Of a stretch of 64,000 nucleotides of DNA, positions 57,570 through 58,515 are shown in pieces (position 1 is the first letter of the stretch; the number at the start of each line of letters is the position of its first letter). The notes beneath the pieces were generated by a model, which made no database searches, had not been told where the DNA came from, and was given only the letters and a program-made list of their open reading frames with translations. Made by a program: the position numbers and the translations under genes. Origin of the DNA: Labilithrix sp. (lineage in GTDB: Bacteria; Myxococcota_A; Polyangia; Polyangiales; Polyangiaceae); the NCBI GenBank assembly GCA_019637175.1, contig JAHBWD010000010.1, forward strand, positions 126,715-190,714. Reading direction: 5' to 3'.

Positions 57570-57810
57570 CGCGCAACGCGAACGCGCGACGCGAACGCGA
57601 ACGCGAACGCGAACGCGAACGCGAACGCGCAACGCGCAACGCGGACGCGCAACGCGAACGCGAACGCGAACGCGCGACGCGAACGCGCGACGCGAACGCG
57701 AACGCGCGACGCGAACGCGAACGCGCGACGCGAACGCAAACGCGCGACGCGAACGCGTGACGCGAACGCGAACGCGCGACGCGAACGCGAACGCGAACGC
57801 GAAACGCGCG
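57570..57810. repeat. (GCGAAC)n hexanucleotide tandem array (~40 units, with GCGCAAC/GCGCGAC variants)
   Basis: Directly visible. It ends at the stop of the four-helix-bundle gene. Confidence 0.9.
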
Positions 57811-57814
57811 CACG

Positions 57815-58141
57815 TCAGCGATAGGAGCCGACGTTCTTGTAGAGGATGGCGATGACGTGCCGCAGCCCGTCATCGATTCGGTCGGGAACCTCGGGCAGAT
57901 GACCCCACGCCCGAGCCGTCACGAGCGCCGCGAGCGCCTCCCGCCCCGACCCCATCGCCAGCGTGTAGTGAAGCGCGCGGCGCTTACCGCGCGCGTGGCT
58001 CCCCTCCGCGATGTTCAGCGCCACGCCGTTCATCGCCCGCCTCAACTGACGCGCCAGATCCGAATCGACCTGCTCCAACCTCTGCATCACCGGACGAAGC
58101 TCCGCCACGACACCCACCGCGATATCGAACGCTCTCAACAT
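57815..58141 (-). CDS. four-helix-bundle protein (23S rRNA intervening-sequence protein family, TIGR02436)
   Basis: MLRAFDIAVGVV...RQLRRAMNGVALNIAEG...ALHYTLAMGSGREALAAL; AGGAGAG Shine-Dalgarno 5 nt upstream. Confidence 0.7.
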   Translation of the reverse strand: MLRAFDIAVGVVAELRPVMQRLEQVDSDLARQLRRAMNGVALNIAEGSHARGKRRALHYTLAMGSGREALAALVTARAWGHLPEVPDRIDDGLRHVIAILYKNVGSYR

Positions 58142-58359
58142 GCTCTCTCCTCTGCTTTCCACCCCGAGCCTCTCTCGCTCGGCGCCGAAGGCCCCCGCCT
58201 CCGCGCGCAGCGCTCGTCAAGGATGACGTGAGGGAGCGAAGCGACCGAACGTCACCGCGCGCCGAAGGCGCGCGGCGCGAAGCGTCCTTGACGAGCGCGA
58301 GCACGGAGGCATCCTCGAAATGCCGAGCGAGAGAAGAAAGATCCCCACCGCTCGCATCG

Positions 58360-58515
58360 CGCGTCCGCGTCGCGCGTTCGCGGCGCGCGTTCGCGGCGCG
58401 CGTTCGCGTCGCGCGTTCGCGTTGCGCGTCCGCGTTGCGCGTTCGCGTTCGCGTTCGCGTTCGCGTTGCGCGTTCGCGTTCGCGTTCGCGTTCGCGTTCG
58501 CGTTCGCGCTCGCGC
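58360..58515. repeat. (GTTCGC)n hexanucleotide tandem array, reverse complement of the 57570..57810 array
   Basis: Directly visible; forms a long imperfect inverted repeat with the first array. Confidence 0.9.

Follow-up and report, generated by a model that had tools for sequence, protein, structure and literature searches.

The 64-kb window, by which we mean the whole stretch of DNA analysed, taken from a Labilithrix sp. MAG (Myxococcota), contains one copy of a cassette in which a small four-helix-bundle (4HB) protein gene and a structured leader are enclosed between two hexanucleotide tandem arrays. The features, in window coordinates, are as follows:

57570-57808, read on the plus strand: array 1, an imperfect (GCGAAC)n array, defined by TRF, 18-mer matching and unit order
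57815-58141, minus strand: 4HB gene of 108 aa (ATG 58139-58141, TGA 57815-57817), TIGR02436 / PF05635
58142-58170, minus strand: linker between the leader and the ATG, with a Shine-Dalgarno GAGGAG (58148-58153), read from the sequence
58171-58334, minus strand: structured 5' leader of 164 nt, defined by folding, covariation and a motif scan
58335-58351, minus strand: unique spacer with a GGUGGGG box, between array 2 and the leader
58352-58515, plus strand: array 2, an imperfect (GTTCGC)n array that reads (GCGAAC)n on the gene's strand, defined by TRF, 18-mer matching and unit order

The 4HB gene runs antisense to the genes on either side of it. Array 1 starts 3 nt past the TAG of an ORF at 56955-57566, and its other end lies 7 nt from the 4HB stop codon, in keeping with the preliminary description, in which this array abutted the gene stop. 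The outer end of array 2 lies ∼110 nt before the ATG of an FGE-sulfatase-like gene (58626-59474). Neighbouring genes encode an LCM methyltransferase, a thioredoxin-like protein, a hypothetical protein, the FGE-sulfatase-like protein, a sigma-54 activator and a Rieske protein, and no reverse transcriptase, transposase or other mobility enzyme is found among them. The gene had also been placed outside any rRNA gene, and this holds for the entire 64-kb window, in which there is no rRNA and Rfam finds one tRNA only. Membership in the rRNA intervening sequences (IVSs) of helix 25 or 45 of 23S rRNA is ruled out by the same result.

The earlier assignment of the gene to TIGR02436 was upheld by its profile score, its NIAEG motif and its fold. 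The protein scores 34.8 bits against TIGR02436 (cut-off 24) and 32.5 bits against PF05635, just below the gathering score of 33.8; all 29 of the 29 database homologs have a precomputed PF05635 hit. An alignment of 24 homologs, window protein included, has 13 invariant columns, NIAEG among them, with L42 N43 I44 A45 E46 G47 unchanged throughout. An AlphaFold model of the monomer (pLDDT 95.6) was used to query Foldseek, which returned 2GSC at TM 0.75-0.78, BT_0352 (2RLD) at TM 0.79-0.81 and, at TM ∼0.7 and a sequence identity of 12-16%, the Avd entries 4DWL and 8UB7. The crystallised protein of 2GSC, XCC0516, is also found by a profile of the window protein's family (E 8.8e-10). The family motif has been given as GxxRxxxSxxxNxxE with an NIAEG core, and members have been found between cas genes (PMC3936711) and as Avd in DGRs (PMC10053308). 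Exact-sequence look-up of the window protein recorded no contig, PADLOC and PHROGs gave no hit, tblastn against a plasmid collection gave no match, and viral contigs contained no relative.

Two hexanucleotide arrays on opposite strands had been described as flanking the gene, and both TRF and probe matching bear this out far beyond chance. TRF resolves array 1 as period 6 with 37.7 copies and 82% matches (score 291) and detects a higher-order period of 19 nt (score 321). Array 2 (58352/58360-58515) is resolved as period 6 with 24.7 copies, and a 13-nt period scores 191. Array 1 comprises ∼38 units, made up of 22 GCGAAC together with 7-nt GCGCGAC and GCGCAAC and a few others. When the whole window was scanned with an 18-mer of three units, allowing ≤2 mismatches, 22 matches were obtained against 0.24 expected, and 21 of these 22 fell inside the two arrays, on opposite strands. 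The arrays had been called exact reverse complements of each other, which is correct for the repeat unit but not for the arrays, as these are imperfect and contain 7-nt variants. The two arms are complementary over 47 nt at 100% and over 69 nt at 87%. Read from the outside in, both arrays present their variant units in the order (GCGAAC)6 ... GCGCAAC GCGGAC GCGCAAC ... GCGCGAC, and because this outer-to-inner order is identical, we conclude that the arrays are mirror copies of each other, a true inverted duplication, and not two independent expansions.

The proposal that the arrays could pair into a very long stem was confirmed by folding of 57560-58530, in which they pair on either strand to give a stem of ∼150 bp (z = -19 and -18 versus shuffles for the two strands). 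With its mirror-image arrays the element is a foldback, with arms of ∼160-240 bp and a 543-bp loop that holds the gene. RE/AN-type shadow ORFs are present in the arrays and long, as had been noted, yet the 7-nt units break every reading frame. A coding repeat is ruled out, since these units generate the 19-nt and 13-nt higher-order periods and shift the frame. An assembly artefact is unlikely: the arms are imperfect mirror copies, and a similar layout occurs in contigs of independent samples and assemblies. Inspection by eye of 57555-57569 and 58516-58530 revealed no direct repeat that would represent a target-site duplication, although a short one could be masked by the repetitive ends. No Rfam family was found in a search of the arrays.

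A conserved leader between array 2 and the gene, absent from the preliminary description, was also found. It is closed by an outer stem of 13 bp (58334-58322 with 58183-58171), inside which lies a conserved stem of 26 bp (58311-58284 with 58223-58196) that is interrupted by one mismatch and one bulge. The invariant internal loop reads UGCUCG / CUGCGCG here and UGCUCGG / CCUGCGCG in the family consensus. Three small hairpins form the cap, of which one is larger and the other two have UUCG loops; homologs have between two and four small hairpins there, and UUCG loops are frequent among them. Homologous 4HB genes elsewhere are preceded by an equivalent leader design, and a G-rich box (GGUGGGG or UUGGGG) is found at the position equivalent to that of the spacer box in L001 and L003-L006 of the homologous loci described below.

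We aligned 34 distinct leaders with the invariant box and the innermost 7 pairs as anchors. In this alignment 91.7% of cells are paired and 15 pairs (139 cells) change on both sides, values that 0 of 500 shuffles reach, and in a control in which the partner was slid by 1-3 columns pairing falls to 31-50%. The clearest compensatory changes occur in unanchored pairs, at columns 2-7/54-59 and 16-18/42-44. On the opposite strand three conserved G.U pairs would turn into C.A mismatches, and we therefore read the leader as sense-strand RNA. A scan of 2.4 Mb on both strands for the leader motif found 48 occurrences, of which 43 lie directly upstream of a 4HB gene; the remainder are mostly at locus edges or beside decayed copies. 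Rfam 15 returned nothing for the leader at gathering score, only chance-level hits with E up to 5. We consider the leader a candidate new cis-acting RNA motif for Myxococcota. Scans for sigma-70 promoters and intrinsic terminators found none, including in or next to the arrays. A promoter may lie between array 2 and the leader (58335-58351), in which case the sense mRNA would be without array 2.

We next consider the arrays in related loci. In the first six homologous loci (L001-L006) period-6 arrays are present on both sides in 6 of 6 cases; 12 of the 12 gaps beside 4HB genes hold arrays, and none of the other gaps >100 nt does. The unit is CGGAGA in L001, L002 and L153 and CCCGAG in L003-L006. 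For a broader survey from the gene side, 80 metagenomic loci with 83 gene clusters were fetched by protein pattern alone, and an array was counted when TRF gave a period of 5-9 within 500 nt of a 4HB gene. By this measure 45 of the 83 clusters, or 51 of 135 assessable sides, have arrays near the 4HB gene, and about half of the homologous clusters are without a TRF-detected array. Array density in these same loci is 0.76 per kb near the genes versus 0.079 per kb far from them, an approximately 10-fold difference, and 1.2 versus 0.107 per non-coding kb with a rough GC3-based coding mask; a several-fold enrichment stands even if this crude mask is wrong by a factor of three. Of the 58 arrays counted 39 have a period of 6, and distant lower-GC relatives have a period of 7 or 8. 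The units themselves are diverse (GCGAGA, GCGGGC, ACGCCC, CCCGCG, TGCTCG and others), and in L135 they differ between the two sides.

In the reverse survey, an exact (GCGAAC)4 scan of representative genomes yielded at least 120 stretches, and among the matches listed many are in Myxococcota, with others in Actinomycetota and elsewhere. The cassette was found at 7 of the at least 120 (GCGAAC)n loci listed (L012, L013, L025, L031, L078, L105 and L113), whereas most of the arrays among the matches listed are short and single and are without a 4HB gene. The preliminary description made pairing of such arrays elsewhere, and their association with this gene family, the test of its interpretation. 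The outcome is mixed: seen from the arrays the association is weak, as most are single and few adjoin the gene, and seen from the gene it is strong, as 4HB relatives are enriched for arrays. Arrays of this type thus also occur without the gene, and beside the gene arrays are strongly enriched. The enrichment points to a cassette type for which the literature searched gives no description; it contained no paper that ties PF05635 / TIGR02436 genes to tandem arrays, which is not proof of novelty.

Orientation of the arrays varies among relatives. They are direct around convergent 4HB gene pairs (L001-L006, L153 and L165), among them related myxobacterial loci, and around one divergent pair (L129); a k-mer test of flank orientation is uninformative for the convergent pairs, where inverted leaders dominate the signal. 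Among 44 single-gene relatives, window included, flanks are inverted in 11 and direct in 3, compared with 2-5 of 44 inverted in composition controls, which is a modest excess. The inverted flanks are arrays of 6-8-nt units in L185, L198, L200, L204 and L206. In L186, L190, L191 and L202 plain inverted repeats of 22-73 nt stand on either side of the ORF, their arms 441-588 nt apart. None of these loci is in rRNA, and 17 related loci contain none. A long hairpin that lies outside rRNA and has an ORF in its loop, the arrangement first recognised in the window, is therefore a recurrent one. Because array orientation can be either direct or inverted, no single role as an RNA stem suits every copy.

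Several copies of the cassette at unrelated sites are seen in relatives. One protein (P0015) occurs in identical form at four places with different neighbours, and between L004 and L006 an identity of 95.6% is confined to the cassette, with homology stopping inside the arrays. L004 and L005 are orthologous, with flanks that are 91% identical, and L005 has ∼850 extra bases in which the arrays are interleaved with a 190-nt low-GC unit; this difference indicates that the array region turns over quickly. The 203-aa ORF upstream of the cassette in the window (56955-57566) has no homolog of >56% identity, and the empty-site comparison was therefore made at L006. At the L006 insertion point L207 and L208 have no array and a gap of 0-8 nt to the next gene, and L207 is 86.6% identical to L006 at the nucleotide level up to the stop codon. 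As these orthologous sites are array-free, the arrays of L006 would have arrived with or after the insertion, a comparison that represents a single case in which the L006 contig ends inside the right array. Landing of the cassette in a pre-existing array is weakened by L207 and L208, with the same weight of one case.

Among the closest known counterparts of the window element is the ORF-bearing 23S rRNA IVS of the Leptospira, Coxiella, Xanthomonas and Brucella type, with which it has the protein family (PF05635 / TIGR02436) in common. In both, complementary sequences on either side of the ORF pair into a long stem and leave the ORF in its loop, and the plain inverted repeats around the ORF in L186, L190, L191 and L202 reproduce the layout of an ORF-bearing IVS. 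In the 428-nt Coxiella IVS, RNase III cleaves a 28-bp stem that contains one mismatch and one bulge, and GACAGAT heptamers, three in tandem and variable in number between strains, stand directly before the 4HB ORF (PMC4990558). The inner leader stem in the window, at 26 bp, likewise has one mismatch and one bulge. Unlike rRNA IVSs, the window element lies outside rRNA, is bounded by tandem arrays of 160-240 bp in place of a unique 28-bp repeat, has a conserved 164-nt leader and a Shine-Dalgarno sequence of its own, and carries a gene that is antisense to both neighbours. The preliminary description had called the element IVS-like or MITE-like. That reading is supported in part: the architecture and the family link hold, the rRNA context is absent, and arrays of this kind also occur away from the gene.

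A second comparison is with the MITEs and with the Drosophila FB elements, whose long terminal inverted repeats are built from short tandem sub-repeats in variable number and whose loop may carry an ORF. The window element has terminal inverted repeats in the form of its mirror arrays and no transposase inside, and its relatives are multi-copy. FB elements are eukaryotic, relatives of the window element can have direct arrays, and no target-site duplication was recognised by eye here. With Avd the window protein has a common fold and distant homology, both being small helical-bundle proteins. Avd is a small basic protein acting on structured RNA, to which the window protein is likened by its fold. 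Membership in a DGR is ruled out, since neither a reverse transcriptase nor a template/variable repeat pair lies nearby.

Genome-specific intergenic repeats offer a third comparison. The Xanthomonas campestris genome has 186 GGGAATC repeats, with 70 convergent two-repeat cases, close to the ends of ORFs, and ∼6% of its genes adjoin such a repeat (PMC4692102). In common with these and with the Nostoc GGGGAYT STRR, the window arrays consist of genome-specific units of 6-8 nt, are imperfect and lie a few nt from ORF ends; the Xanthomonas repeats are, in addition, often convergent inverted pairs like the inverted arrays of the window. They differ in that the Xanthomonas and Nostoc repeats typically have 4-14 units, whereas the window arrays have 25-38 units and bracket a gene. 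Repeat no. 15 of the GGGAATC set overlaps the start of XCC0516, the crystallised 4HB family member (PMC4692102 supplement), which is weak independent support for the array link; text searches of PMC4692102 found no mention of 4HB genes.

Taken together, the recurrence of the cassette, its leader structure, the mirror-image relation of the two arrays and the presence of several copies in relatives are established. We assign a probability of about 0.5 to the reading that the window contains one copy of a recurrent and probably selfish cassette, a free-standing relative of the ORF-bearing 23S rRNA IVS, with the arrays as its foldback termini. Such a cassette would consist of a structured 5' leader RNA, the 108-aa 4HB ORF and short-period arrays as outer boundaries. 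The arrays would be part of the element, brought in with it or grown out of it, and would not represent a prior landing pad. In a transcript that spans the element, the arrays and the 26-bp leader stem may form long duplexes that are putative RNase III substrates. Cleavage by RNase III would then trim the cassette RNA, or release it altogether, and make it independent of the neighbouring genes, as for rRNA IVSs. Through the homology between them, dispersed arrays of a common unit could allow the cassette to be copied, inverted or lost with no dedicated transposase. The 4HB protein, like Avd, may bind nucleic acid, and its own leader would be the likeliest partner.

The main rival to a foldback cassette is coincidence with a genome-wide repeat family, in which an orphan 4HB gene happens to sit in intergenic DNA filled by slippage-born, genome-specific repeats to which it has no functional tie. 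The mostly geneless (GCGAAC)n loci, at least 120 of them in many genomes, are consistent with this, as are the at least 10 loci with the GCGAAC unit in one MAG (JACPFM01), the inverted or compound array pairs that occur without 4HB genes (L040 and L014) and the convergent Xanthomonas repeat pairs near ORF ends (PMC4692102). We nevertheless consider coincidence unlikely. Arrays are ∼10-fold denser beside 4HB genes, per non-coding kb as well, and in L001-L006 they fill every 4HB-adjacent gap and no other gap of >100 nt. Slippage at two separate sites would not be expected to give the mirror order of variants, the orthologous empty site is free of arrays, and cassette copies at unrelated loci (L004 and L006) retain arrays of a common unit. 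The arrays might instead be repeated DNA or RNA binding sites of a pentameric 4HB protein and form with its gene a self-contained module, for example for autoregulation or a nucleoprotein structure. The homologs XCC0516 and Avd form pentameric rings with a positive charge, and in the DGR ribonucleoprotein Avd binds to RNA; many lineages have arrays beside the gene, and close cassettes have common units (L001, L002 and L153; L003-L006), although these may just mirror common ancestry. This is in our view very unlikely, given that units diverge between lineages whose proteins keep the invariant residues, that the two sides of L135 carry different units and that many family members have no array.

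Lower again we place a phase-variation or expression switch, in which the number of repeats adjusts how strongly the 4HB gene or its neighbours are transcribed or how stable their mRNA is. Array length does differ between the orthologous L004 and L005, the heptamer number of the Coxiella IVS varies among strains (PMC4990558), and intergenic heptamers and an RNase III-targeted 5'-UTR element are reported to control phase variation in Haemophilus (PMC12721329). Arrays of 25-70 units on both sides are, however, far longer than known switch tracts, a leader of 190-220 nt separates the upstream array from the gene (here ∼210 nt to the ATG), the downstream array would be unable to act on a promoter, and the promoter scan of the arrays and their surroundings found none. 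Least probable of these readings is templated reiterative synthesis, a telomerase-like process in which the 4HB protein would aid a host reverse transcriptase or polymerase at the element ends. It is pure analogy, built on Avd as the obligatory cofactor of the DGR reverse transcriptase. It would suit units that are genome-specific and sharply defined, compound arrays with an abrupt change of unit (L014, L105 and L113) and an empty site without arrays, but there is no reverse transcriptase near the window locus or the other loci read and no template candidate, and slippage with unequal recombination accounts for array growth without such an enzyme.

The reading of the window as one copy of a foldback cassette can be extended to a more general one, in which PF05635 genes would be the coding core of widespread but so far unrecognised hairpin or foldback cassettes, with rRNA IVSs as their best-known sites, that seed and spread genome-specific intergenic repeats of 6-8 nt, either themselves or through their Avd-like protein; the myxobacterial hexamers, the Xanthomonas GGGAATC repeats and the cyanobacterial STRR would be examples. 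We regard this extension as quite unlikely. The origin of 6-8-nt intergenic repeat families is stated as unknown in the papers searched, as is the function of the Xanthomonas repeats (PMC4692102).

A free-standing, multi-copy cassette with three parts provides concrete experimental material. With it two questions would become testable together. One is the origin of ORF-bearing 23S rRNA IVSs, whose discovery dates back ∼35 years, and the role of their conserved 4HB protein. The other is the reason for the hundreds of genome-specific 6-8-nt intergenic repeats that are found at gene ends in some bacteria.

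Hexamer arrays of the kind that enclose the four-helix-bundle (4HB) gene also bracket a second kind of module, which is non-coding, in the homologous 4HB locus L005.

L005 1985-2680, both orientations: low-GC unit of ~190 nt, with further occurrences ahead of the 4HB pair in L003 and L006

This unit, in which TTTCCTAGGAAA palindromes are abundant, occurs in L005 as one copy one way round and two copies the opposite way. Its bracketing is deduced from the hexamer arrays that stand between successive copies in L005.

Arrays were further found as pairs without any 4HB gene, and at great length, in three other loci.

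L040 24-522: inverted (GAAGGC)n / (GCCTTC)n pair without any 4HB gene
L014 3779-4259: two adjacent arrays of unlike units without any 4HB gene
L017 5227-7994: (CACACG)n array of 2.7 kb, 461 copies

In L040 a gap of ~180 nt, which holds three 22-nt direct repeats, separates the inverted arms, and the order in L014 is (GTCGGC)n followed by (GCGTTT/GCGTTC)n. L017 entered the locus set through (GCGAAC) runs that are also present in its (CACACG)n array; its contig is labeled Metamycoplasmataceae, and because its composition is odd for that family it may represent a binning or assembly problem.

Other repeats occur in the window, two of them coding for protein tails, and 8-nt repeats accompany a distant 4HB relative in another locus, L193.

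Window 52851-52913: (CCG)21 run coding for the poly-glycine C-terminal tail of a minus-strand ORF (781 aa, Ig-like-domain)
Window 54657-54790: period 12/24 repeats coding for the Lys/Gly/Pro-rich tail of a thioredoxin-like protein
Window 41309-41387: 9-nt tandem repeat CGATCCGCT, 8.8 copies, 87% matches
L193 362-483: SAM riboswitch, ~1.1 kb upstream of the distant 4HB relative
L193 1625-1942: distant 4HB relative, located just past the stop of another gene and preceded by 8-nt (CAGTCAAC)-like repeats

Among the metagenomic loci, many of the short contigs with a 4HB gene (e.g. L135, L129, L137, L151, L167) end within a hexamer array. The arrays appear to break short-read assemblies, and their frequency beside 4HB genes is therefore probably underestimated.

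L001 3320-3570: decayed second 4HB gene, convergent, only the C-terminal part left

A degenerate leader copy accompanies this remnant, which shows that cassettes erode in place.

Within the structured leader RNA, both sides of the internal loop, UGCUCGG and CCUGCGCG, are nearly invariant in the window (58284-58311 with 58196-58223) and at the corresponding positions of 33 further leaders. So is, across the same set, a CGCTCGGC box that lies upstream of them at a distance of 25-30 nt. The stems surrounding these boxes covary among the 34 leaders. The boxes look like a specific recognition site, or like a promoter element that precedes a -10-like TATCGT/ATTGT.
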